The notes beneath the pieces were generated by a model. The model did not search any database, was not told the DNA's origin, and saw only the letters and a list, made by a program, of their open reading frames with translations. The position numbers and the translations under genes were made by a program. Of a stretch of 64,000 nt of DNA, positions 534 to 64,000 are shown one piece after another (within the stretch, counting starts at the first letter, position 1; every line of letters begins with the position of its first letter). Origin of the DNA: Parcubacteria group bacterium Gr01-1014_31 (GTDB lineage Bacteria; Patescibacteriota; Patescibacteriia; Buchananbacterales; GWA2-38-13); NCBI GenBank assembly GCA_007376135.1, contig VMFR01000001.1:9259-73258 (forward strand), read 5' to 3'.

Positions 534-812
534 ATGGAAAATTGCACGCACCACGACCATAGCCATACTGTTCCGCACGCGGCGAGTGCTCCCGCCGCGC
601 CCGCATCAGAAACGCGCCGGCTTACCATCGCGCTGGTCGCCGTCACGGCGTTCCTCGGCATCCAAACCGTGCAGCTGGTTTCGCTGCGCCGCAGCCTGGC
701 GGCCGCACCGTCCGCTGCTGCTCCGGTCGCGGCGGCCGCGGCTGCCCCACAGGGTGCCGCTCCGCTGCCGTCCAGCCTGCAAAATCTGCCGAACATGGTC
801 GGCGGCTGCTAG
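534..812 (+). CDS. small membrane protein: His-rich N-terminus (CTHHDHSH), one TM helix, Ala/Pro linker, same C-terminal tail PLPSSLQNLPNMVGGC
   Basis: ORF track; ATG at 534; C-terminus encoded by a near-identical ~55-nt repeat of 422-482. Confidence 0.4.
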   Translation: MENCTHHDHSHTVPHAASAPAAPASETRRLTIALVAVTAFLGIQTVQLVSLRRSLAAAPSAAAPVAAAAAAPQGAAPLPSSLQNLPNMVGGC

Positions 813-815
813 GGT

Positions 816-1637
816 ATGCCGCGTTTCATGCGACCGACGTTCGCCGTTGCGATAGTGGCGGTGGCTGTTGCGGCGCTCAACGTCGCGGGCACCGCGCAGC
901 TATTCGGGCAGGTCAAATCCTCGCCAACTCCCGTGCCGCCTCCGCGTTTACAGGTGACCGTGGTCACCGATGCCGCCTGCGCCGAGTGCGCCTCGCTTGA
1001 ACCAGTGGTTGCCCAACTGGCGAAGTTCAATATTGTCCTGGAGCGGGCAACGTTTGAACGCAACAGCACGGAGGGGGCAGCCTTGCTGACGCGGTACGGC
1101 ATCGTTACCGTACCGACGTTGGTGGTGAGCGGCGATGTGGACGCCCTACCGGAACTGGCATCGTTTTGGCAGAAGCTGGGGCGGCGCGCGGCGGACGCCG
1201 TCATTCTTGATCCGCCCATTCCGCCCTACCGCGACGTGCAGAGCGGACAGATCCGCGGCCGGGTGGCCGTGACCCTGGTGGGCGATGCCGCTTGCACCAC
1301 CTGCTACGACGCGAATGAGCACCTGACCATTCTGGCACGCTTCGGCATCAAGGATGAAAACCCGCGCCGGGTGGACATCCGTTCCACGGACGGCCAAACA
1401 TTGCGCCGTGATTACGGCATTACCATGGTCCCGACGTTCGTGCTCACCGGCGAGGTTGGCGTTTACGAAGGGCTGTCGAACATTTGGGTACAAGTGGGTA
1501 CCACCGAAAAGGATGGCGCCTACGTTTTCCGGCAGGGGGTAGCGAGCATGGGCACGTACCGTGATCTGGCGACGGGCAAAATTATTTTGCCCACCCCGAC
1601 TCCCACACCCTCGCCGGTCCAAGGAGTCCAGCCATGA
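816..1637 (+). CDS. membrane-anchored protein-disulfide oxidoreductase-like protein with two thioredoxin-fold units (CAEC...VPT; CTTC...VPT)
   Basis: N-terminal hydrophobic anchor; two CxxC motifs each followed ~40 aa later by a cis-Pro-like VPT(L/F)V motif; starts 3 nt after previous stop. Confidence 0.6.
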   Translation: MPRFMRPTFAVAIVAVAVAALNVAGTAQLFGQVKSSPTPVPPPRLQVTVVTDAACAECASLEPVVAQLAKFNIVLERATFERNSTEGAALLTRYGIVTVPTLVVSGDVDALPELASFWQKLGRRAADAVILDPPIPPYRDVQSGQIRGRVAVTLVGDAACTTCYDANEHLTILARFGIKDENPRRVDIRSTDGQTLRRDYGITMVPTFVLTGEVGVYEGLSNIWVQVGTTEKDGAYVFRQGVASMGTYRDLATGKIILPTPTPTPSPVQGVQP

Positions 1638-2639: not shown

Positions 2640-4049
2640 ATGCGCCGTATTCTCATCGTCAATCCGAATCTCTACTCATCGCGCGCCACCGTGATGCGCG
2701 GGCGGCACCGGCCGCCGCTGGACTTGGCCTACATTGCCGCTCTCCTGCGCAACGATTTTGAAGTGCGGCTCGTGGACGCGCGCGTCGACAATCTTGATGT
2801 GTGCCAGATGTACGCGGAGGTGGCGGCCTATTCTCCCGAGGTGCTCATTACGACGACCACGCCCGTGGACCGCTGGGAGTGCCCGCAGTCCTATTTGGAG
2901 TCATTCTTCAGCTGGCTTGGCGATGTTGCCAACCTGCCCACCAAGCCCGTGATCATCGTCACGGGCACGCACGGCACCACGCAGCCCGACTGGCTGCTGC
3001 GCCGTTGCCCGTCCATCGATTTCTTGGTGCGCGGCGAACCTGAACGGACGTGTGAGGCGTTGGTGCGCGCAATTGCGGCCGGCGGCCATCCGTCCGTCAT
3101 CGCCGGAGTGTCGTACCGCCAGGAGGAAAAGATCCTGCACAATCAGGCAGCACCGCGCATTCTGGACCTGGACGCCCTGCCCTTGCCGGCCTACGACCTG
3201 CTGCCGATGGGCAAGTACCGCTACACGTTCGGCGACATCCCGCAACCGTTCTCCATCGTGCTGGCCACCCGCGGGTGCCCGTACCGCTGCACCTTCTGCT
3301 GCCGGGTCATGATGGAGAACGCCTACGTTACGCGCAAACCCCAGCAGGTGTACGATGAATTGAAGTACCTGCGCGAGCGGTTCGGCGTGCGCGGGATTTT
3401 TTTCCAGGACTGGGAGTTCACCATCAACAAGTTTTTCGTCAATGCGCTGATGGACCTGCTGCTCGCCAAGCCGTTGGGCATCACCTGGGGTTGTAACGCG
3501 CGCGCCAATGATTTCCAACAACCCCAACTGTTCGAGAAGATGCAGCGGGCCGGCTTGGTGCGGGTGAACATCGGCTTTGAGTCCGGTTCTCCCGAGGTCC
3601 TGGAGGCGGTCAACAAGAAGATCACGGTCGACGACCTGGCGCGGGCCATAGAAGTGACCCGGCGGCTGAAGCTGCACTTGGGAATGTACGCGCTGCTCAA
3701 CGCGCCCGGGGAAACGGCAAAAACCATCCGCGAAACCATGGCGTTCCTCAAGCGCCAGGGGATCAGTTCGATGAATTTCAACCTGGTCGTGCCGTACTTC
3801 GGCACCGCGGTGCACGAGCAGCTGCGCGAGCAGCTCGGCCCCGAAGCGGCCGAGCACCTGACCTGGGATACCATCGAAGAGTACGCCGGCCGCACCCGCA
3901 CGCAGTTGCCGCCTTGGCTGGCGCGCCTCTACCAGCGTCACACGAAATACCGCCTCTCCAGCGGGCCGATCTACTGGCTGCGCCCTGCGGTCTGGGCCGA
4001 GGTCGGGAGAAAGGTCGTGGGCCGCATGCATCCGCATGAGGGAAAGTAG
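2640..4049 (+). CDS. B12-binding-domain radical SAM protein
   Basis: N-terminal Rossmann-like B12-binding region (RILIVNPN...LDLAYIAALLR); CxxxCxxC cluster motif GCPYRCTFC; start moved to internal ATG 2640. Confidence 0.8.
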   Translation: MRRILIVNPNLYSSRATVMRGRHRPPLDLAYIAALLRNDFEVRLVDARVDNLDVCQMYAEVAAYSPEVLITTTTPVDRWECPQSYLESFFSWLGDVANLPTKPVIIVTGTHGTTQPDWLLRRCPSIDFLVRGEPERTCEALVRAIAAGGHPSVIAGVSYRQEEKILHNQAAPRILDLDALPLPAYDLLPMGKYRYTFGDIPQPFSIVLATRGCPYRCTFCCRVMMENAYVTRKPQQVYDELKYLRERFGVRGIFFQDWEFTINKFFVNALMDLLLAKPLGITWGCNARANDFQQPQLFEKMQRAGLVRVNIGFESGSPEVLEAVNKKITVDDLARAIEVTRRLKLHLGMYALLNAPGETAKTIRETMAFLKRQGISSMNFNLVVPYFGTAVHEQLREQLGPEAAEHLTWDTIEEYAGRTRTQLPPWLARLYQRHTKYRLSSGPIYWLRPAVWAEVGRKVVGRMHPHEGK

Positions 4050-4058
4050 CGTAGCGTT

Positions 4059-4086
4059 CAGCCGCCCTTTGCCGGGCGGTTTTTGT
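4059..4086 (+). terminator. rho-independent terminator after radical SAM gene
   Basis: stem CCGCCC / GGGCGG with 6-nt loop followed by TTTTT. Confidence 0.6.
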
Positions 4087-4106
4087 TTGGGCGTTCCGTC
4101 GGTTTG

Positions 4107-4115
4107 TGGTATAAT
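4107..4115 (+). promoter_or_regulatory. extended -10 element TGgTATAAT upstream of receiver gene
   Basis: TGnTATAAT match ~37 nt upstream of ATG 4152; upstream TTGTTT hexamer is spaced 21 nt (non-canonical). Confidence 0.4.
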
Positions 4116-4151
4116 TATGCCCTAGTATCAACGCGCGCGGGCGCGATTCTT

Positions 4152-4562
4152 ATGGCAACCAAGAGCACGAAGAAGCCGACAACCACGGCGGCGGGCGGCA
4201 AGGCCGTTCTCATCATCGAGGATGATGAATTTTTGGCAAAAATGATGGCCCGGATGCTGGAAGAGGCCGGGCTGCGGTGTACGCTGGCGGGGAACGGCAA
4301 AGAAGGCTTGCGGAAAGCGCAGGCGGATGTCCCGCAGCTCATCATCCTGGACATCATCCTGCCTGATTTGGACGGGTTTGCGATTTTGAGCAAATTGAAA
4401 GCCGCCGCCGCTACCAAAGCGGTTCCGGTCATCATCATTTCCAACCTTGGCCAGGAGGAAGACGTGCAGCAGGGTCTGCGGTTGGGCGCCAAGGACTACA
4501 TCGTAAAGAGCGACCTCAGCCTGGATGCGGTGGTGGCTAAGGTGATGAAGCAACTGAAATAA
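4152..4562 (+). CDS. stand-alone response-regulator receiver domain (CheY-like), likely pilus-associated
   Basis: phospho-acceptor Asp in IILDIILPDLDG, DYIVKSD motif; no output domain; immediately upstream of pilB/pilC. Confidence 0.8.
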   Translation: MATKSTKKPTTTAAGGKAVLIIEDDEFLAKMMARMLEEAGLRCTLAGNGKEGLRKAQADVPQLIILDIILPDLDGFAILSKLKAAAATKAVPVIIISNLGQEEDVQQGLRLGAKDYIVKSDLSLDAVVAKVMKQLK

Positions 4563-6385: not shown

Positions 6386-7594
6386 ATGCAATTCGCGTAT
6401 TCGGCAGCCACGGCGGACGGGAAGATGACCCGCGGCGTTGTGGCCGCAGCCAACCAGCGGGCCGCGATCGCGCTGCTTGAACGGCAGCAGCTGGTTGTCG
6501 TGAAGCTGGAGCGCCGTCGTGACGGCAAGGCTCAGGCGCTCTACCGCGTGCCGCTGTTGCAGCGGATGCTTTTGGCGCAGCACCTGTCGACGCTCCTAAG
6601 AGCCGGCGTCAGCTTGCTGGAAGGCCTGCGAGTGGTGCAGGAAGAGGCCCGCTCACGGCGATTACGCAAGCTGTTGGAACGCGTGCGGGTCAAAGTATCG
6701 TCCGGCACCACCTTTGCCGCCGCCCTCGAATCCCAGGGCGGGGCCTTTGACTCCCTATTTACCAGTTTGGTGCGCGTCGGCGAGTCCTCCGGCACGCTGG
6801 AGGAGAATCTTTCCTACCTCGCGGATGAATTGGAGAAACGGATGGCGCTCCACACCAAAGTGCGCTCGGCGTTGACGTATCCGGCGGTGGTCGTCGGCGT
6901 GACGGGCGTGCTGGGCGCGGTCCTCGCGTTCTTCGTATTGCCCAAGATTGTTCCGCTGTTCACCTCGCTCAAGGTGAAACTCCCGCTCTCGACGGAGATC
7001 CTGTTGAGGGTCGCCGGGTTCTCCCGCGACCACGGTATGCTCTCCCTGGCGCTCATCGCCGGCGCCATCATTGCTTTCCGTTTGCTGACCTTGCGGGGAC
7101 CGTTGCGGCGGCAATGGCATTGGTTCTTGCTGCGTTTGCCGGTGGTCGGCCGCATTACGCGAAGTTTGAACCTGGCCAACGCCTGCCGGACCCTGGGGAC
7201 GCTGTTGAAGAGCGGCGTGCCGTTGCTGGAGGCGCTTGATATCACCGCCGGCACACTGGGGAATACGGCGTACCGCGAGGAATTTTCCGCTCTGCGGGAT
7301 GCGGCCGGCACCGGCACCAGCCTCGCTGCAAGCATGGCGCAGCCCTCGCGGCGGAAGCTGTTCCCGCCCTTGACGCTGTCGCTGGTCCGGGTGGGCGAAT
7401 CCAGCGGGAAACTGGACGAGAGTTTGCTCTACCTGAACCGTTTCTACGAACGCGAGGTGGATAATTTAATGAAAGATCTGACGGTCATCCTGGAGCCGAT
7501 GCTGTTGGTGTTCATCGGACTGGTGGTGGCGTTCGTCGCCGGGGCCATCATTACGCCTATCTACCAGATCTCCGGCAGTCTGCGAGTGAGATGA
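6386..7594 (+). CDS. pilC: type IV pilus inner-membrane platform protein PilC (GspF family)
   Basis: two GspF repeats, 3 TM regions; start at ATG 6386 preceded by AAGG. Confidence 0.85.
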   Translation: MQFAYSAATADGKMTRGVVAAANQRAAIALLERQQLVVVKLERRRDGKAQALYRVPLLQRMLLAQHLSTLLRAGVSLLEGLRVVQEEARSRRLRKLLERVRVKVSSGTTFAAALESQGGAFDSLFTSLVRVGESSGTLEENLSYLADELEKRMALHTKVRSALTYPAVVVGVTGVLGAVLAFFVLPKIVPLFTSLKVKLPLSTEILLRVAGFSRDHGMLSLALIAGAIIAFRLLTLRGPLRRQWHWFLLRLPVVGRITRSLNLANACRTLGTLLKSGVPLLEALDITAGTLGNTAYREEFSALRDAAGTGTSLAASMAQPSRRKLFPPLTLSLVRVGESSGKLDESLLYLNRFYEREVDNLMKDLTVILEPMLLVFIGLVVAFVAGAIITPIYQISGSLRVR

Positions 7595-7597
7595 TCT

Positions 7598-9646
7598 ATG
7601 AGGTTTCACTGGCCGCGGCGCAGCGTGGTGGGCATCGACCTTTCTGACCGGTCGATCGAGGCGTTGCAGCTGAAGCGGTCGCTGGGGAAGCCCGCACTGG
7701 CTGCCTACAGCCGGGTGCAGTTGCCGCCGGGTGTCGTTGAGGACGGGCGGATCCTACAGCCGGCCGCGCTGGTGGAACGGGTGCGCCAGCTGCTGCAGAA
7801 AGCGCGTCCGGAGCCCATTAAGGAGCATCTGTGTGTTATCGCCCTGCCGGAATCCCAGGTCTATTCGCATGTGTTTTCGTTGCCCGCGGCGTTCCAGGCC
7901 GAACAGGTGCGGCGGGCAATCCTCCTGGAGGCGGAGCACTTCATGCCCATCCCACTCAGGGAAAGTTATTTGGATTTTCGTCCTATCGGCGTCCGCGGCG
8001 AGTATCAGGAGGTGGCGTTTGCGGCGACCCGGCGCGGCCTGGTGCATACGTACCTTGAGGTTTTCAAGTCCGCCGGGCTCCAGCCTATCGCCTTCGAGCC
8101 GGAATCCGTCAGTCTGGGCCGGTCGCTGGTGCGCCGGACCTTAGGCGACGGGTCGGCGGCTACTCTTATTGCGGATGTGGGTATGCGTACGACCAATGTC
8201 CACCTCGTGCGCCAGGGTGCGGTCATCGGCAGTTTGACGATTCCGCGGGCCGGCGGTCACTTCACTGAGGCGGTCGCCGCGGCCATGAAGATTTCCCCGG
8301 AGGAGGCCGAGACCCGCAAACTGCAGGTCGGGTTCGACGAGCGGCGGGGCGATGCCGTCCTGGTGTCCGCGCTCTCGTCGGCAGCGGTGCCGATCATCGC
8401 CGAGGTCAAGCGGTTCGTGGCGTACGCGGTCGAACATCGCGGCGTAACCGTACGCCAGGTGGTGTTGGCCGGCGGGTCCGCCTTGCTGCCGGGGTTCCCG
8501 GAATTTTTGTCGGCCCAGTTGAGTTTACCCGTCAGCGTCGGGGAGCCGTTGGCGCGCCTTTGGCAGGGCCGCGTGAAGCTGCCCGAACGCCAGGGCGTGC
8601 TGTATGGCAATGTCATCGGGCTGGCGCTGCGCGGGCTGCACCGCGACCCGGTTGCGGCGGGACCAAATCTGCTGATTCAGGCGCAGGACCGCATCCGCAG
8701 CGAACAACTGCAGCATTTTTTGACCGTACCGAAATTCGATCGGCGGCTGTGGGGAATGGTCGCCGCACTGGTATGCTCCCTGCTGGTGCTGGGGGGGCTG
8801 TTGTGGTACCGATCGGCAACGCCGGCGCCAAACCCGCGCTACGTGGTGGAATTTTCTCCGTTGGACTGGGCCAAGAGTAAGGCGCCGCAGACGACGGAGC
8901 TGGCTATTTCCTTTGCGTCCGCGGAGGCTGTTCCCGCCAATGCGCTTCCCGCGCGATTCCTGGAAGGAGTATTCACCGCCACGGACGTTTTCGCGGCTAC
9001 GGCGTCCGCCACCGTTGCCACCACGGACACGCTGGTGCGATTGGTGAACACGACCGATCGGGACCAGCCACTGGTGTCCAATACCCGGCTGGAGGCAAAT
9101 GACGGAACCACCCTGCGTCTTACCTCCGGGGTCATCGTGCCCGCGGACGGTACTTTGACCATTGCCGTTCCCCTCCCGCCGGACGGTGGAGTGAGCGGGC
9201 GTTTGCGACTGCCGGGGTTGTCGGTTGATGCCCAGCGGTCCATCTACGCCGAAGTCATCCTCCCCGCCGCCGTCATCGGGGCAGGCGATGTCGCCGCGGC
9301 CCGCGAGCGGCTGTTTGCCTCAGCGCGGCAGTTGGCAACCGATGCCTTCGTTGTTCAACAGGAAGCTGAGGAGTACCTGCTGCCGATATTCCCCCCGCTT
9401 GAGGGGGAGGCGCTGACGACGTCGTTGCCAGTCGGAGCATTCGCCGTCGAATTTTCGGCCACGCTGCGCCAACCCTTCGGAGGCATCGTGGTGTTCAAGA
9501 ATGACCTGGTATCGGCGATCACCGCCGCGTTTGGCCCCCTGGAGCAGCCGCTCCAGTCCGTCAGTTTCACGCTTGGCAAGCTGGATTTGGCGGAGCGCCG
9601 GATTTCTGTTATAATAACCACAGCCAGCCCGCCTGTGGAAAAGTAA
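7598..9646 (+). CDS. PilM-like actin-fold ATPase fused to PilN-like TM segment and a ~280-aa C-terminal extracytoplasmic domain
   Basis: N-terminal VVGIDLSDRSIEAL... PilM/FtsA-like fold; single TM (LWGMVAALVCSLLVLGGLLWY) near residue 390. Confidence 0.7.
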   Translation: MRFHWPRRSVVGIDLSDRSIEALQLKRSLGKPALAAYSRVQLPPGVVEDGRILQPAALVERVRQLLQKARPEPIKEHLCVIALPESQVYSHVFSLPAAFQAEQVRRAILLEAEHFMPIPLRESYLDFRPIGVRGEYQEVAFAATRRGLVHTYLEVFKSAGLQPIAFEPESVSLGRSLVRRTLGDGSAATLIADVGMRTTNVHLVRQGAVIGSLTIPRAGGHFTEAVAAAMKISPEEAETRKLQVGFDERRGDAVLVSALSSAAVPIIAEVKRFVAYAVEHRGVTVRQVVLAGGSALLPGFPEFLSAQLSLPVSVGEPLARLWQGRVKLPERQGVLYGNVIGLALRGLHRDPVAAGPNLLIQAQDRIRSEQLQHFLTVPKFDRRLWGMVAALVCSLLVLGGLLWYRSATPAPNPRYVVEFSPLDWAKSKAPQTTELAISFASAEAVPANALPARFLEGVFTATDVFAATASATVATTDTLVRLVNTTDRDQPLVSNTRLEANDGTTLRLTSGVIVPADGTLTIAVPLPPDGGVSGRLRLPGLSVDAQRSIYAEVILPAAVIGAGDVAAARERLFASARQLATDAFVVQQEAEEYLLPIFPPLEGEALTTSLPVGAFAVEFSATLRQPFGGIVVFKNDLVSAITAAFGPLEQPLQSVSFTLGKLDLAERRISVIITTASPPVEK

Positions 9647-21454: not shown

Positions 21455-21646
21455 TCAGTCGAAGAACGCCCCCAGGCAGAAGTCATATCTGCACAAATTG
21501 CAGATGCTGCCTTCGTCGATAATGCCGCCGCAGCTGCAGTGGCATCCGTGCCTGACCGGCGGCCGCCGTTCGTTTGGAGCCTCAACGCGAGGTGGGAGCC
21601 CCTTGGGCGGACTGGATTCGGCGGAAGGCCGTTTCGAAGTTTCCAT
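21455..21646 (-). CDS. 63-aa Cys-rich protein (6 Cys: CHCSC...C..C.....C)
   Basis: ATG 21646 with GGAGG SD 6 nt upstream; consensus promoter upstream. Confidence 0.6.
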   Translation of the reverse strand: METSKRPSAESSPPKGLPPRVEAPNERRPPVRHGCHCSCGGIIDEGSICNLCRYDFCLGAFFD

Positions 21647-21713
21647 GAAATACCTCCATGGTTTTGGTGGTTTCTAGGTACAGGAGGAAACGAAGGTGCA
21701 TAAGATAACATCC

Positions 21714-21742
21714 ATTATATAACAAATAGTATGTTTTGTCAA
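21714..21742 (-). promoter_or_regulatory. perfect-consensus sigma70 promoter TTGACA-N17-TATAAT (minus strand) for gene C
   Basis: plus TGTCAA 21737-21742 and ATTATA 21714-21719; AT-rich context. Confidence 0.7.
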
Positions 21743-21940
21743 GGGTATTGAAAATAAAAAAGACGCCCCGGCAGATAGTTTGGGATTATTGCCGGAGCGT
21801 TGGGGATATTCTATGTCAAGAGGTCCTAGTCCGCCGTCGGCGTTCCTGCTATTATGCAGGTACGTCATTCTCCGAGGTCGCGTCGCTTCGGGCGGACCAC
21901 GGGCCGGGGGCTTCGCCGTCCGGTAACCATTCACTTCCGT

Positions 21941-28651: not shown

Positions 28652-28680
28652 TTGAAAAATCGCGCGTTTTGTGCTATTAT
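28652..28680 (+). promoter_or_regulatory. sigma70-like promoter TTGAAA-N17-TATTAT for rsmI
   Basis: hexamers at 28652-28657 and 28675-28680. Confidence 0.55.
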
Positions 28681-28698
28681 TGCAGCACATTATTTGTT

Positions 28699-29364
28699 AT
28701 GGGAACTCTGTACGTGGTGGCCACACCCATCGGGAATCTGGCCGACATTACGCAGCGCGCGATCGACACCCTGCGCGCAGCCGACCTGATCGCCTGCGAG
28801 GATACGCGCCACACCTCGATCCTGCTGCGCCACCTTGGCATTGCCGCGCCGCTCACCAGCTACCATCAGCATAGCGGTCCGGTAAAAATCGAGCAGGTCG
28901 TGCGCGCCCTGGGAGAAGGGAAGAAGGTCGCGGTCGTGACGGACGCCGGCACGCCGGGTGTGAATGACCCTGGCGGCAAGCTGGTAGCTGCCGCGGCCGC
29001 TGCCGGGAATCAGATCGTCCCCATCCCCGGCCCGTCGGCAATCGTTGCCGCGCTTTCCGTGTCGGGGCTCCCGGCCGATGATTTCCGTTTTCTTGGTTTT
29101 TTGCCGCACAAGAAGGGGCGGCAGACGGCCATCGCCGGCATCGCGGCGGCCGAGACGACCGTAGTGTTCTACGAGTCCACTCATCGCATTCTGAAAACAC
29201 TGCAGCAGTTGGCCGACGCGCTCACTGCGGATCGCCCCGTCGTGGTGTGCAGGGAATTGACCAAGCAGTTTGAAACCGTCTACCGCGGCAGTTGCCAAGA
29301 GGTACTGCAGCAGTTGCAGGCCGGCGTTACCAAAGGGGAGTTTGTCGTTGTAGTTGGATTCTGA
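28699..29364 (+). CDS. rsmI: 16S rRNA (cytidine1402-2'-O)-methyltransferase
   Basis: GTLYVVATPIGNLADIT...LIACEDTRHT tetrapyrrole-methylase fold; start ATG 28699. Confidence 0.85.
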   Translation: MGTLYVVATPIGNLADITQRAIDTLRAADLIACEDTRHTSILLRHLGIAAPLTSYHQHSGPVKIEQVVRALGEGKKVAVVTDAGTPGVNDPGGKLVAAAAAAGNQIVPIPGPSAIVAALSVSGLPADDFRFLGFLPHKKGRQTAIAGIAAAETTVVFYESTHRILKTLQQLADALTADRPVVVCRELTKQFETVYRGSCQEVLQQLQAGVTKGEFVVVVGF

Positions 29365-29379
29365 TCTGTTCTCGGCTCG

Positions 29380-29790
29380 TTATTGGGCAATCAATTCACA
29401 ATCGATGGTGCATTGGCACCATTTGTTACCAAATTCCATGGTTTTCGAAGATGCGTTACACCACCAGGCACTACCAGGGTTGTGACCTTCACATAGGCTG
29501 CCCACAGGGCAATTGTTGGAAACCTTTCCCCGAATAGTTTGGAGATTTGATTCCACTAAATTGTTTTGCTCGATTAACTCTACTTTCTGTGTAATCAAAG
29601 CTTCCCCATCCTTTTTTGCTTGGTTGAGTGCAGTATTCGTTTCCATGTACCGCTTTGTCGCTAGTTTAGACTCTCTATGAAGTGTCCCCACCCATCGGGC
29701 GAGTTGTCTATTAGTGTTCCATAATGTTACTAGTTGAGCGGAAAGAATAGCCGATCCGATGATTAGCCCTACCAAGATGATTTTTTTCAT
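29380..29790 (-). CDS. low-GC island gene 1: N-terminal TM anchor, coiled-coil region, C-terminal 6-Cys module (C-x5-C-x10-C-x13-C-x-C-x3-C)
   Basis: ORF track; local GC ~42% versus ~65% genome; paralogue of next gene. Confidence 0.55.
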   Translation of the reverse strand: MKKIILVGLIIGSAILSAQLVTLWNTNRQLARWVGTLHRESKLATKRYMETNTALNQAKKDGEALITQKVELIEQNNLVESNLQTIRGKVSNNCPVGSLCEGHNPGSAWWCNASSKTMEFGNKWCQCTIDCELIAQ

Positions 29791-29816
29791 AACTTTGTTC
29801 TGATTTATTGCTACCT

Positions 29817-30260
29817 TTAGCGTTCGGATGGCCGGGAAGCCACCTCACATTCTTCGGTGCATGTGCAGAAATTTGGCGCAAGCCCACGATCTACATAGTT
29901 CCCATTCTGGTCACACCTGAAACCAGAACCTCGGGTTTTACCTCTACAGCTATTTTCTTTGAGACAAATTATGGGCGTGGGGCTAGTTAAATTTTCATAG
30001 AATTTTACCCCAGCTGAGTTGCCCTCTAGAGATTGGCGAAGCGAAGTTATTTCACTCGACAACAGTGCATTTGAGGTTTGTGTAGCCTTGAGGTTCTGTT
30101 CAATCACCTGAGTTTCTAGGCCTAATGTTTCACGGTAACGGAGCAATGAATCAACGGTTGAAAGGAATATGTTATTATTAAGTGCGAACACTAACGTAAA
30201 AGCTGCCAAGAAAACAATGAGTGTACCGAACATCCCGATCCAGGCGTCGATTATTTTCAT
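29817..30260 (-). CDS. low-GC island gene 2: paralogous TM anchor + coiled coil + 6-Cys module (C-x5-C-x10-C-x15-C-x-C-x3-C)
   Basis: start at ATG 30260 (MKIIDAWIGMFG...); same Cys framework as gene 1. Confidence 0.55.
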   Translation of the reverse strand: MKIIDAWIGMFGTLIVFLAAFTLVFALNNNIFLSTVDSLLRYRETLGLETQVIEQNLKATQTSNALLSSEITSLRQSLEGNSAGVKFYENLTSPTPIICLKENSCRGKTRGSGFRCDQNGNYVDRGLAPNFCTCTEECEVASRPSER

Positions 30261-30315
30261 AGAAATACTTGTGAGGAGTAACAATTCACCTTCATCCTAG
30301 CATATTTTTTCTGAC

Positions 30316-31779
30316 ATGCCCAAGAAGTTCTACGTCACCACGTCCATTCCCTACGTCAATGCCGCGCCCCACATCGGGTTCGCGCTGGAGCTGGCGCAGA
30401 CGGATGCCATTGCGCGCTGGCAACGGCAGCACAAACGTGACGTTTTTTTTCTGACGGGCGCCGACGAGAACAGCCTCAAGAACGTCCGTGCGGCCGAAGC
30501 CGAAAAGATGTCCACGCCGGAGCTGGTCATCCGCAATACGCAGCGTTTTTCCGACCTCGGCAAGGCGTTGAACATCTCGAACAGCGCGTTCATTCGGACG
30601 TCATTGCCCGAGCATCACGCCGGTGCTCAGGCGCTGTGGCGCGCCTGCAAGTCGGAGGATATCTATCGTAAGAGCTATCAGGGGTTGTACTGTGTGGGGT
30701 GCGAGACGTTCTACTTGGAAAAGGACCTGGTCGGCGGCACCTGCCCCGAGCACCGCACCGTCCCCGAGCTCGTCAATGAGGAGAACTACTTTTTCCGCCT
30801 CTCCGCCTACCAGCAGCGCCTGCTGCAGCTGATCAACGACGGCACCCTGGAGATCATTCCGGAGGGTCGGCGTAACGAGATCACCAGCTTCATCAGCATG
30901 GGATTGGAGGATTTCAGCATTTCGCGCTCGCGCACTCGGGCTAAGGACTGGGGCGTGGATGTGCCGGGCGATCCGGGCCAGGTGATGTACGTCTGGTTCG
31001 ATGCGTTGTCCAATTACTTGACGGCGCTGGGCTACGGGCAGAAACCCGCTCCGCGCTACAAGCGCTATTGGCCAGCCGACCTGCATGTCATCGGCAAGGG
31101 GATCACCCGTTTTCACGCGGTGTACTGGCCGGCGATGCTGTTGTCCGCGGGTGTCCCGTTGCCCAGGCGTATCTTTGTCCACGGCTACATTACCGTCGGC
31201 GGGGGAAAGATCTCCAAGTCGTTGGGGAACACCGTCGATCCGTTCGCGCTGATCGATGAGTTCGGCGCCGACCCGGTGCGCTACTACTTGCTGCGCTACG
31301 TCCACCCCACCCAGGACAGCGATTTTTCTGCCGAGAAGGTCGCCGAAGCGTACCAGGCCGACCTGGCCAATGGGCTGGGCAATCTGACCTCGCGGGTGAC
31401 CGGTCTGATCGAACAGAGCAAGATGGAGATCACCCCGCGGAAGCTTCCGTCGCCGTCCAAAGAGTTGGCGGCGGCGATGGCCTCCTTCGATTTCAATGAA
31501 GCGTTGCGACTGGTCTGGGAAGAGGTGCGTCGGACCGACGCGCTCATCGCGGCGGCGGAACCCTGGAAGCTGGCCAAGGCCGGCAAGACCACACAGCTCA
31601 AGACGGTCCTGGCCAAGGCCCTGACGGGATTGGCCACCGCCGCGTTCTGGCTGGAGCCGTTCCTGCCGGCGACGGCGGAAAAGATCCAAAACTCACTGGC
31701 GGTGCGTCCCATGGTCAAAGTGGCGCCGCTGTTCCCGCGCCTTGAAATCAAAGAGCCTGCGGCTCCAGCCCAGGTCTAA
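30316..31779 (+). CDS. metG: methionyl-tRNA synthetase (short form without C-terminal tRNA-binding extension)
   Basis: HIGH-like PYVNAAPHIGF, zinc knuckle CxxC...CxxC, KISKS. Confidence 0.9.
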   Translation: MPKKFYVTTSIPYVNAAPHIGFALELAQTDAIARWQRQHKRDVFFLTGADENSLKNVRAAEAEKMSTPELVIRNTQRFSDLGKALNISNSAFIRTSLPEHHAGAQALWRACKSEDIYRKSYQGLYCVGCETFYLEKDLVGGTCPEHRTVPELVNEENYFFRLSAYQQRLLQLINDGTLEIIPEGRRNEITSFISMGLEDFSISRSRTRAKDWGVDVPGDPGQVMYVWFDALSNYLTALGYGQKPAPRYKRYWPADLHVIGKGITRFHAVYWPAMLLSAGVPLPRRIFVHGYITVGGGKISKSLGNTVDPFALIDEFGADPVRYYLLRYVHPTQDSDFSAEKVAEAYQADLANGLGNLTSRVTGLIEQSKMEITPRKLPSPSKELAAAMASFDFNEALRLVWEEVRRTDALIAAAEPWKLAKAGKTTQLKTVLAKALTGLATAAFWLEPFLPATAEKIQNSLAVRPMVKVAPLFPRLEIKEPAAPAQV

Positions 31780-51162: not shown

Positions 51163-51699
51163 ATGCGCGTGCCGACCCTAAAAAAAACGGACGTGACGTT
51201 GCGGCCCCTGCGGGTTTCCGACGCGCCGGCGTTTTGCCGCTGGCTGCAGGACCCCGAAGTCACCCGTTTTCTTAATCGGCACGAAGACCCGCCGACGTTG
51301 CGCGAGGAACGCGAGTACCTGCGAGATGAGCAGCGCCGCGCCGATCATGCGCAGTGGGGGATCGTCGTTGAACGCGAATTGGTCGGCACCGTGGCGCTTG
51401 ATAAGATCGATCGCGAACACCGTCGCGCGGTCTACGGGATCTTCATCGGCAACCCAAGATACTGGGGACAGGGATATGGAACGGCGGCTGGCCGTTTAGT
51501 GGTTCGCTTTGGTTTCCGGCAGCTTAAGCTCCAACGGATCTCTCTGCTCGTTTACGTTTATAATACCCGCGGTTATCGTTCCTACCGGCGACTCGGCTTC
51601 CGCCGCGAAGGAAGACTGCGCAACCATTTCTATCGAAACGGCACCCATCATGATGCCTTCGTGATGGGAATGCTCCGGCGGGAATATTTATCTTTATGA
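51163..51699 (+). CDS. GNAT-family N-acetyltransferase (RimJ/RimL-like)
   Basis: acetyl-CoA binding RGYGTAAGRLVV...; alternative TTG start 51151 4 nt after GGGAGG. Confidence 0.7.
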   Translation: MRVPTLKKTDVTLRPLRVSDAPAFCRWLQDPEVTRFLNRHEDPPTLREEREYLRDEQRRADHAQWGIVVERELVGTVALDKIDREHRRAVYGIFIGNPRYWGQGYGTAAGRLVVRFGFRQLKLQRISLLVYVYNTRGYRSYRRLGFRREGRLRNHFYRNGTHHDAFVMGMLRREYLSL

Positions 51700-52094
51700 A
51701 TTTGTCAAGCAATATAAATAGTATTTTATTACTTAGGGGCAGCGTAATTGCCGCTACCGATAAATTATTATTTTGGAGGCGATGGGGTGAGCTAGAGTTA
51801 TATCAGGAGGGGATTTTATTAAAGTTAGCATCGCTTTGGTTTATGAGTTTCTTTTTCCATAAACATGACATAGTTTTTGAAATAAATAAAAAGGATATTA
51901 TTCAAGTCGGCCGAATTAGCAATATTTTCATTCTCTTTTGGCTTCAGGGTATATCTGCGTTTTATATTAAATATATGGATAAAGAGCATCGGGTTAAAAA
52001 ATTTACCGTGGTCTGTGGATGGTTATTCAGTGGCGTTAAAGCCGATGAGGAATGGATAAGTAATTTTAAAAAGATAGGAGTTAATGTTAAATAG
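51696..52094 (+). CDS. extremely AT-rich (~33% GC) 132-aa hydrophobic protein, start overlapping GNAT stop (ATGA)
   Basis: ORF track; sharp compositional break 51700-52100 versus ~65% GC flanks. Confidence 0.4.
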   Translation: MNLSSNINSILLLRGSVIAATDKLLFWRRWGELELYQEGILLKLASLWFMSFFFHKHDIVFEINKKDIIQVGRISNIFILFWLQGISAFYIKYMDKEHRVKKFTVVCGWLFSGVKADEEWISNFKKIGVNVK

Positions 52095-62834: not shown

Positions 62835-63380
62835 TCAGCGTCCGCCCGAGGGAGTAACGGTAAATTCGACGGGCGGTGCGGACTTGGTGGGAATTTCTTC
62901 GGTGAACAGGCGCGCCAGTTCCTGCTTCCAGGCGGGATTTTCCCGGTAGAGGTCCACCTGCAGGCCGGCGGATTTCAGGTAGTCGACCGCCTGAGTATTG
63001 CGGTAGATCCGGCCGATGACGACGCGGACGATGCCCGCCGCGACGAGGTATTTGCAGCAGTGGATGCAGGGACTGTATTTGGCGTACATCGTGGAGCCGC
63101 GCGTAGACGTGCCGCCCTGGGCGGCGGCTTGCAGAATGGCGTTGTGCTCGCCGTGCACCGTGCGCACGCAGTGCCCCTCTTCCAACAGGTGGCCTTCGTC
63201 GTCGCAGTGGGGGAGGCCCGGGGGCGAGCCGTTGTAGCCGGTCGAAATGATGCGTTTGTCTTTGACCAGGACCGAGCCGGCATGCAAACGGTCGCAGGTA
63301 GAACGCGTCGCGACCAGCATCGCGATCGCCATAAAATAATCGTCCCAGGACGGTCGGTGCGGGGCGCTGATCATACCCAA
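62835..63380 (-). CDS. dCMP deaminase (CMP/dCMP deaminase zinc-binding)
   Basis: RPSWDDYFMAIAMLVATRSTC, HGEHNAIL, SPCIHCCK. Confidence 0.85.
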   Translation of the reverse strand: MGMISAPHRPSWDDYFMAIAMLVATRSTCDRLHAGSVLVKDKRIISTGYNGSPPGLPHCDDEGHLLEEGHCVRTVHGEHNAILQAAAQGGTSTRGSTMYAKYSPCIHCCKYLVAAGIVRVVIGRIYRNTQAVDYLKSAGLQVDLYRENPAWKQELARLFTEEIPTKSAPPVEFTVTPSGGR

Positions 63381-63589
63381 TGGGAGTAGTCGGGAATCAA
63401 TTGGATATCAAGATACTACCCCAGAAATTGAGTCTTTTCAAATAAGTGAAAGCGCCTGACCAAGATGGACCAGGCGCCCGTAAAAACCAAATAGTACCGT
63501 CGTTACGGAGTTCTCAACACGCGCGCGGTGCGCATGCAAATTAATGAGCAAATAATTCCGGAAAATATTTTCGATTCCGTTGGTTCAGA

Positions 63590-64000
63590 TTATGTTTTTA
63601 CGGGCTGGTTGCCCTCGTTATCTCGGTCTTCCGTGGGCGGCGTTCCGCCATTCTGTGCCTCATGGCCGTTCGTGCTTCCGTTGTTACGGTAGCAGAAGCG
63701 CGGGTCGTCCAGCAGGACCACCTCGTCGGCTGCGTCACGGAGCGCGGCGGATAAATTCGAGCGGAAGCTCATCACGACCACATAGTGGCCGCTGCGTTGA
63801 AGGTCGACCATGAGATCGATGAAATCACCATCACCGGTAATGAGCACGGCCACATCGAGTTGCGGCGCAAAATTTTTGGCGTCAACCGCGAGGCCGACGT
63901 CCCAGTTCCCCTTGCGCATCCCGTCGGGGAAAATTTGGAGGTCTTTCGCCCGCACCCGGTAGCCGGAACATTTCAGGCTATAGATATACGCTTGCTTGCT
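63590..64000 (-). CDS. NYN-domain (LabA-like) protein, 5'-partial (continues beyond window end)
   Basis: GNWDVGLAVDA...VLITGDGDFIDL...HYVVVMSF; frame open through nt 64000. Confidence 0.6.
   Translation of the reverse strand, partial: SKQAYIYSLKCSGYRVRAKDLQIFPDGMRKGNWDVGLAVDAKNFAPQLDVAVLITGDGDFIDLMVDLQRSGHYVVVMSFRSNLSAALRDAADEVVLLDDPRFCYRNNGSTNGHEAQNGGTPPTEDRDNEGNQPVKT

Follow-up and report, generated by a model that had tools for sequence, protein, structure and literature searches.

A low-GC islet between rsmI and metG in a Parcubacteria contig carries two divergent members of a small family of six-cysteine proteins

The DNA described here is a 64,000-nucleotide stretch of contig VMFR01000001.1 from Parcubacteria group bacterium Gr01-1014_31 (assembly GCA_007376135.1, positions 9,259 to 73,258 of the forward strand), which was analysed as a whole and is called the window below. 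Between the window's rsmI and metG genes lie 951 bases (29365-30315, strand not assigned) that form an islet of low guanine-plus-cytosine (GC) content. The islet has 43.1% GC, and the local value drops to 0.40-0.46 over about 29380-30300, whereas the window mean is 61.2% with a standard deviation of 4.9% (300-bp windows). The left flank is rsmI (28669-29364, plus strand; Pfam TP_methylase, 1.7e-38), which runs up to the islet edge with its final codons and stop, and the right flank is metG (30316-31779, plus strand; Pfam tRNA-synt_1g, 5e-93). Two open reading frames (ORFs) on the minus strand, termed genes A and B, fill the islet, and nearly all of it is coding. When the islet is shuffled, an open frame as long as 159 codons appears in only 0.55% of cases.

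Both genes use codons in a manner that is foreign to the genome in which they reside. The GC content at third codon positions (GC3) is 0.43 for gene A and 0.44 for gene B, against 0.72-0.85 for native genes, and when a codon-adaptation index is derived from 28 native genes of the window, each of the two has z = -7.8. The site was compared with that in relatives of MetG, which were scanned in one genome per GTDB species. The best relative (locus L001) is 72% identical, and the next (L002, 57%) comes from a Komeilibacteria metagenome-assembled genome (MAG). In these two loci metG directly adjoins rsmI on the same strand, with a gap of 57 bp in L001 and 5 bp in L002, and the two genes lie within about 260 bp of each other in 13 of the 17 loci that hold both. 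When the window is aligned to L001, homology ends at position 29358, within the last rsmI codons, and restarts at the metG start codon at 30316. Thus, the islet is an insertion into a conserved gene pair, with its own genes on the opposite strand. Because its codon usage is foreign and it is missing between rsmI and metG in L001, L002 and other relatives, the islet is foreign, and it was acquired horizontally. The insertion replaced the C-terminal tail of rsmI and provided a new stop codon; the window copy ends ...VVVGF-stop at the islet edge (29340-29364), and the L001 orthologue is about 25 codons longer.

The hexamer TTCTGA, as read from the sequence, is found on the plus strand at the left edge (29359-29364) and again at the right edge (30309-30314), where it makes a possible 6-bp direct repeat, although its presence at both edges could be chance. 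The islet has no long terminal repeats or terminal inverted repeats, the ORFs around it include no integrase that would serve as a mobility signature, and no tRNA or Rfam family occurs anywhere in the window. MetG and RsmI of the window are nearest to those of MAGs from the candidate phyla radiation (CPR) or Patescibacteria, with Chloroflexota close behind. Several records with a MetG of CPR type, including L001, L003 and L005, are titled 'uncultured Gammaproteobacteria' or 'Pseudomonadales', and these labels are probably placeholders or wrong. As a separate observation, the gap between rsmI and metG measures about 600 bp in two CPR-type genomes and holds a small ORF with several transmembrane (TM) segments on the plus strand (L017 5246-5773 and L065 5388-5852); the GC content of the L017 gap is 0.386, compared with 0.497 for its locus. 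It seems that this junction has repeatedly acquired small genes for membrane proteins.

Gene A (29817-30284, minus strand) encodes 155 amino acids when read from a TTG codon at 30284, or 147 when read from an ATG codon at 30260, and its product has the organization of a bitopic stalk-and-knob protein. In ATG numbering, a membrane-spanning helix is predicted at about residues 6-27 (30180-30245, minus strand), where the Kyte-Doolittle 19-residue maximum reaches 2.37 (residues 8-26). Residues 28-91 (29988-30179, minus strand) form a helical stalk, which AlphaFold2 models as a continuous helix and in which Leu, Ile, Val and Met are enriched at heptad a and d positions relative to shuffled sequences (p = 0.003). 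The knob occupies residues 99-138 (29847-29966, minus strand) and was delimited by a regular expression and the AlphaFold2 model; its six cysteines follow the framework C-x5-C-x10-C-x15-C-x-C-x3-C.

Gene B (29380-29790, minus strand) encodes 136 amino acids with an architecture like that of A. Its predicted membrane-spanning helix lies at about residues 4-24 (29719-29781, minus strand; Kyte-Doolittle 19-residue maximum of 2.27 at residues 4-22) and is preceded by Lys-Lys. The stalk (residues 25-90; 29521-29718, minus strand) shows the same heptad enrichment (p = 0.008) and aligns with the coiled-coil region of the family members described below. The knob, at residues 94-131 (29398-29511, minus strand), has the framework C-x5-C-x10-C-x13-C-x-C-x3-C, as established by the regular expression and by the family alignment (A4). 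The segment from the end of the TM helix to the first cysteine is 72 residues long in A and two residues shorter (70) in B. A relaxed form of the framework expression has no other match in the six frames of the window, and in 0.94 Mb of fetched loci the framework matches occur in true family members alone.

A preliminary description of this stretch, made from the sequence alone, had noted a segment of about 950 bp between rsmI and metG that carries two minus-strand paralogues, each with an N-terminal TM segment, a heptad-like region and a C-terminal cysteine module. The Pfam matches of the flanking genes, the hydropathy and heptad analyses and the exact cysteine spacings all bear this out. Its attribution of the islet to horizontal acquisition likewise stands, both on codon usage and on the absence of the islet from relatives, which were two of the checks that it had proposed. 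The compositional break that it placed at roughly 42% versus 65% GC is indeed sharp, but the background is 61.2% rather than about 65%.

The six-cysteine module is shared with a family of proteins that is encountered in metagenomes. A HMMER search with a profile built from the two modules, run against 1.84 billion cluster representatives, returned 26 matches at E <= 0.001, of which 21 have the exact framework C-x5-C-x10(11)-C-x13-C-x-C-x3-C, all from metagenomes. The remaining five (P0001, P0008, P0013, P0014 and P0024) are repeat proteins that lack the framework, and these were dropped. Word-indexed homology searches with A, with B and with an alignment of 31 modules found nothing, and only the exhaustive HMMER search succeeded. 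Searches of the loci used a seven-sequence subset of the family alignment. When a hidden Markov model (HMM) was built without the window proteins, A scored 55.9 bits (E = 3e-15) and B 37.2 bits (E = 2e-9), and no other ORF fragment among 16,646 reached E <= 10. These scores establish that both A and B are true members of the family, with B the most divergent.

The family consensus, C-x-K-[DE]-N-x-C-K-F-R-T-P-G-S-x-F-R-C ... G-x2-W-C-E-C-x3-C-E-V, includes a conserved Gly four residues ahead of the fourth cysteine (C4, with the six numbered C1 to C6), to which both A and B conform. Other features expected of a member are an Asn at C1+4 and a loop of the form K/R-x-R-x-P-G-S-x-[FY]-R-C. Gene A keeps the conserved Asn, the basic residues and G-S-x-F-R-C (its loop reads C-R-G-K-T-R-G-S), and it differs from the rest of the family by a two-residue insertion in the third loop (x15). 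The first module of P0009 (residues 49-78) is degenerate in that C2-C5 are kept while C1 has become Ile and C6 has become Tyr. This joint loss is a weak hint, from sequence, of a disulfide between C1 and C6, a bond that would differ from the disulfide topologies of both pacifastin and epidermal growth factor (EGF) modules.

The module is a real domain, and it is present in none of the curated libraries that we searched. In Pfam, stray single matches that we regard as noise aside, none of the 31 copies reached E <= 10. Family members matched NCBIfam, PHROGs and PADLOC profiles only below threshold and through the coiled coil, the window proteins had no relevant match there, and no PDB sequence was retrieved by a profile search at E <= 10. 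Sub-threshold matches to SMC, JetC, FlbB, ATG16, spanin and DivIC were set aside as coiled-coil noise, and literature searches found nothing on a six-cysteine module of this type. The earlier call for sequence and structure searches of the module has therefore been answered in part, with a metagenomic family of 21 members on the one hand and no significant match to a known family or structure on the other, and the statement in the preliminary description that the fold could not be named holds.

AlphaFold2, when supplied with the 31-module alignment, models the A module confidently as a small beta-rich fold with three short strands (mean predicted local distance difference test score, pLDDT, of 90.9). 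The full-length model of A comprises one helix over residues 2-91, a low-confidence linker and the beta module. A Foldseek search of the PDB with the module model yielded no significant structural neighbour. The top three matches are pacifastin-type inhibitors (2xtt_A, 2f91_B and 2vu8_I), each of them protease-bound, but all have E > 1, and their superposition at a root-mean-square deviation of 1.2-2.0 Å over 34-35 columns is not significant.

Many members of the family share the layout seen in the window, with a TM helix, a coiled coil and a C-terminal module (P0005, P0010, P0016, P0018, P0020, P0023, P0025 and P0026), and JGI annotates one of these, P0020, as 'Tfp pilus assembly protein PilO'. 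Other members place the module differently. In P0012 a classical cleavable signal peptide is followed by Cys-rich helical repeats, a Pro-rich linker and then the module, and in P0011 and P0021 the module follows a multi-TM protein. Arrays of two to seven modules are found in the secreted proteins P0002, P0003, P0004 and L088, which in the last three cases are tandem arrays within large Cys-rich proteins. Given these varied placements, the module appears to be an extracytoplasmic unit that is usually terminal. A particularly direct comparison is offered by L086 and L087, two syntenic loci that have in common a 159-amino-acid and an approximately 290-amino-acid neighbour. The module is carried at L086 by a TM helix and coiled coil (3870-4334, 154 amino acids) and at L087 by a cleavable signal peptide and a beta-rich ectodomain of about 270 amino acids (7194-8147, 317 amino acids). 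Since the two proteins differ in their N-terminal part at the same genomic position, the stalk appears to be interchangeable.

Although A and B are adjacent, they are not the products of a recent tandem duplication. BLASTP aligns the two proteins through the module alone (28% identity, E = 4e-5), and their paralogy is real but remote. In comparison with outside members, A matches P0005 and P0017 at E of about 4e-14, and the match of B to P0016 has E = 3e-13, but that between A and B has only 5e-4. Recent duplication is ruled out because each is nearer to outside members than to the other. The contigs that carry these nearest relatives have GC contents of 41.7% (P0017, for A) and 43.3% (P0016, for B), compared with 43.1% for the islet. 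Beside P0016 on L098 there is a tyrosine recombinase gene (652-1557, minus strand; Phage_integrase), which may be a housekeeping Xer or a mobility gene, on what is a short contig.

Clusters of the family are tiny, with one or two metagenomic members each. The carriers include bacterial contigs of CPR type (Patescibacteria-like) and a single DPANN archaeon. Eight loci from JGI reside on contigs with a GC content of 26-46%, and the GC content of every member gene there agrees with that of its own contig. One member adjoins Obg on bacterial contigs. The archaeal member, P0025, corresponds to MDD5253666.1 ('hypothetical protein') from Candidatus Nanoarchaeia and lies at 8001-8375 of L089, a 509-kb DPANN archaeal contig, where its neighbours are genes for FEN1, a family B DNA polymerase, CDC48 and TrmB. 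Thus, the family spans bacteria and archaea. Relatives were detected neither among 2.9 million viral contigs nor, by tblastn, in 50,697 phage genomes, nor among BFVD structures, and tblastn against plasmids gave no real match.

The compositional status of members in high-GC genomes is informative with regard to the origin of the islet. Loci L093-L095 (61% GC) belong to a relative of the window organism, with an S9 peptidase that is 60-66% identical, an EamA protein that is 58% identical, and matching gene order and orientation. These loci carry P0026 (L093 1634-2414, also in L094 and L095) 29 bp upstream of EamA, near but not at the site corresponding to the window islet, and its GC3 of 0.78 is native. 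A second member, P0018, resides in another high-GC contig (L096 1984-2457) and has a GC3 of 0.53 where its neighbours have 0.69-0.80, an intermediate value that suggests an older acquisition. That high-GC lineages hold native, intermediate and foreign members is most readily explained if the family was acquired repeatedly from donors of lower GC content and the genes then ameliorated. The preliminary description is partly supported overall; the small metagenomic family, the lack of a recent duplicate pair and the native-composition member in a related high-GC lineage are additions to it.

Elsewhere in the window, a second islet at 51696-52094 (plus strand) has a GC content of 0.33, a GC3 of 0.35 and a codon-adaptation z of -8.4. 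It consists of a 132-amino-acid ORF between a GNAT acetyltransferase gene and thrS, both of which it overlaps by a few bases. Searches of Pfam, PHROG, NCBIfam and PADLOC gave no match for the product, which falls outside the six-cysteine family. Further short dips in GC content are located at 21601-21900 and 63301-63700, with minima of 0.487 and 0.473 (300-bp windows).

We propose that the conserved rsmI-metG pair was interrupted by a cassette of two genes that arrived horizontally, and that this cassette probably came from a genome of about 42-43% GC among the ultra-small symbionts of the CPR or DPANN groups. The N-terminal helix of each product would anchor the protein in the cytoplasmic membrane with its N-terminus inside the cell, and some 65-70 residues of heptad-biased alpha-helix would form a stalk of about 10 nm. 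The helices are predicted to pair as a coiled coil, probably a dimer and possibly an A/B heterodimer. As the distances between TM helix and first cysteine are nearly equal (72 versus 70), the two heads would be level with each other, an arrangement that a heterodimer would allow. The stalk would carry a knob of 38-40 residues locked by three disulfides, and this knob would serve as a ligand-binding head that contacts a host cell, a cell-wall component or a secreted protein. For this structural reading as a whole, an acquired cassette of anchored stalk-and-knob proteins that display binding knobs at the surface, we consider the chances to be evenly divided. The function in contact or adhesion is itself a more tentative proposal, to which we give somewhat less than an even chance.

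Several observations weigh against this proposal and should be kept in mind. The argument for a binding function is purely architectural, and disulfide bonding is an assumption of the model, such that the six cysteines may bind metal instead. The start codon of gene A is ambiguous (TTG 30284 or ATG 30260), and that of gene B lacks a Shine-Dalgarno-like motif; we set the latter evidence aside because only 7 of 28 native genes have such a motif upstream when their starts are taken from the longest ORF. Consensus scans of the islet for promoter-like and terminator-like sites were negative. Gene B lacks both the conserved Asn and the basic loop of the family (its loop reads C-E-G-H-N-P-G-S-A-W-W-C), and consequently it may be degenerating. 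Members elsewhere are single genes, and a required pairing of A with B is therefore no trait of the family. Finally, the gene neighbourhoods of family members are not conserved, and none indicates a pathway.

The main competing explanation is that the knob is a membrane-tethered protease inhibitor of the canonical type, whose basic loop would enter trypsin-like proteases of a host or competitor and thereby shield the cell surface. We judge this to be unlikely, although several features speak for it. The three best Foldseek matches in the PDB, non-significant as they are, are all of pacifastin type. A conserved position in the Cys-pinned loop (C-K-F-R-T-P-G-S) is mostly Arg or Lys and is followed by Pro-Gly, and the tandem modules of P0002, P0003 and P0004 resemble the multi-headed inhibitor precursors that exist in nature. 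We regard it as similarly doubtful that the cassette is recent passenger DNA, silent or decaying, whose ORFs are intact only through lack of time. The wholly unameliorated composition, the failure to find promoter-like or terminator-like sites and the orientation of the genes, antisense within a once-compact rsmI-metG unit, would fit such an origin, as would the status of B as the most divergent member without the conserved residues. However, both ORFs are full length and retain every one of the six cysteines as well as an intact TM segment and stalk, in an islet that is nearly all coding. Moreover, relatives keep members of the family until amelioration is complete, and the native composition at L093 implies that selection retains them.

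Other explanations have far less to recommend them. The preliminary description had offered a toxin or bacteriocin-like pair, a spanin-like pair and a surface-display pair as candidate functions. The last of these is the best fit, because in the sequences at hand the module appears always to be extramembrane, on varied stalks and ectodomains; the other two fare poorly. A toxin or bacteriocin with its partner or immunity protein might be suspected from small, Cys-rich products encoded as a horizontally moving pair, but it is very unlikely given that A and B share one anchored architecture, that the islet holds no double-glycine leader, processing site, exporter, peptidase or immunity gene, that relatives elsewhere occur singly, and that PADLOC and Pfam toxin matches are lacking. 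A spanin-like pair, or another remnant of phage lysis or moron genes, is more improbable still. The islet is foreign, and P0005 and P0010 do have weak PHROG matches, over the TM helix and coiled coil, to Rz-like spanin profiles (E = 3e-6 and 6e-6). These matches span only the low-complexity coiled coil, which also matches SMC, FlbB and JetC profiles, and the window proteins themselves have no PHROG spanin match at E <= 0.1. Neither protein has a Cys before residue 94, so there is no lipobox o-spanin; the neighbours are rsmI and metG, with no holin, endolysin or phage gene nearby, and the searches of viral contigs, phage genomes and BFVD found no relatives. Just as implausible is a metagenome assembly chimera in which low-GC reads from another organism became joined into a contig of high GC content. 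Both edges show a sharp compositional break, which speaks for it, yet a chimera normally has one breakpoint, and here native syntenic genes restart exactly at the metG start codon after an insert of two complete genes. In addition, a similar islet is present at 51.7-52.1 kb, and L096, from an independent assembly, is a high-GC contig that likewise holds a family gene of lower GC content.

An attached life on other cells is presumed for most CPR bacteria and DPANN archaea, and to our knowledge very few of the molecules responsible for attachment in these groups are known. The module is a tractable candidate for a head that mediates host contact or evasion of host defences, in that it is small, confidently modelled, predicted to be locked by disulfides and to lie only on the outer face of such organisms, shared by bacteria and archaea, and apparently gained more than once. 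Its size of about 40 residues lets it be synthesised or expressed directly. More speculatively, and in our view with a rather low probability, a new three-disulfide fold would define a family that moves between CPR and DPANN organisms as a stalk tip that grips hosts or neutralises host surface proteases, and the window would record a fresh acquisition of two divergent alleles within an ongoing turnover of host-contact proteins, of which the native and partly ameliorated copies in related lineages would be further products. Should the module do no more than cap orphan proteins structurally, the islet would be an ordinary one of orphan genes. Small islets that were acquired horizontally and carry an orphan gene for a surface protein are familiar objects; what is new is the domain, its occurrence both in bacteria of CPR type and in a DPANN archaeon, and the evidence for its repeated uptake.

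In comparison with the metagenomic members of the family, the window proteins have the same six-cysteine framework and layout of TM helix, coiled coil and module, and A keeps the conserved residues of which B has lost the Asn and the basic loop. They stand apart in being foreign to their own genome and in forming a tandem pair of deeply diverged members. Pacifastins (PF05375), which are arthropod proteins, are likewise small modules that span about 35-40 residues, contain six cysteines, form three strands and can occur in tandem arrays. However, their spacing (C-x9-12-C-x2-C-x-C-x6-8-C-x4-C) is not that observed here (C-x5-C-x10-C-x13/15-C-x-C-x3-C), and their Pfam profile matches none of the 31 modules at E <= 10. 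Pacifastin disulfides link cysteines 1-4, 2-6 and 3-5, whereas the co-loss of C1 and C6 in P0009 hints at a different topology. EGF-like modules also have six cysteines, including a C-x-C, and are extracellular binding modules that are often repeated. Their spacing is C-x7-C-x4-5-C-x10-13-C-x-C-x8-C; only 1 of the 31 modules reached even E = 0.51 with the EGF profile, and no EGF structure is among the Foldseek matches listed.

Other systems resemble A and B in the anchor and stalk. An N-terminal TM segment and an extracytoplasmic coiled coil are shared with the i-spanins of the Rz type, but this feature is generic. Rz-type spanins lack a C-terminal knob, and A and B lack an o-spanin partner, a lysis cassette and a phage context. 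The layout of TM helix and coiled coil is also that of FtsL/DivIC and PilO, and some family members show faint matches to DivIC or FtsL. These matches are far below curated cut-offs, cover the coil only and are not seen with the window proteins; the division or pilus gene context is absent here, just as the Cys knob is absent there. Stalk-and-head adhesins, such as streptococcal M proteins and trimeric autotransporter adhesins, use a long helical stalk to project a small binding head. A and B have no sequence or fold relationship to these adhesins, are much smaller and carry an N-terminal TM anchor rather than a cell-wall or outer-membrane anchor, but the working principle proposed for them would be the same.

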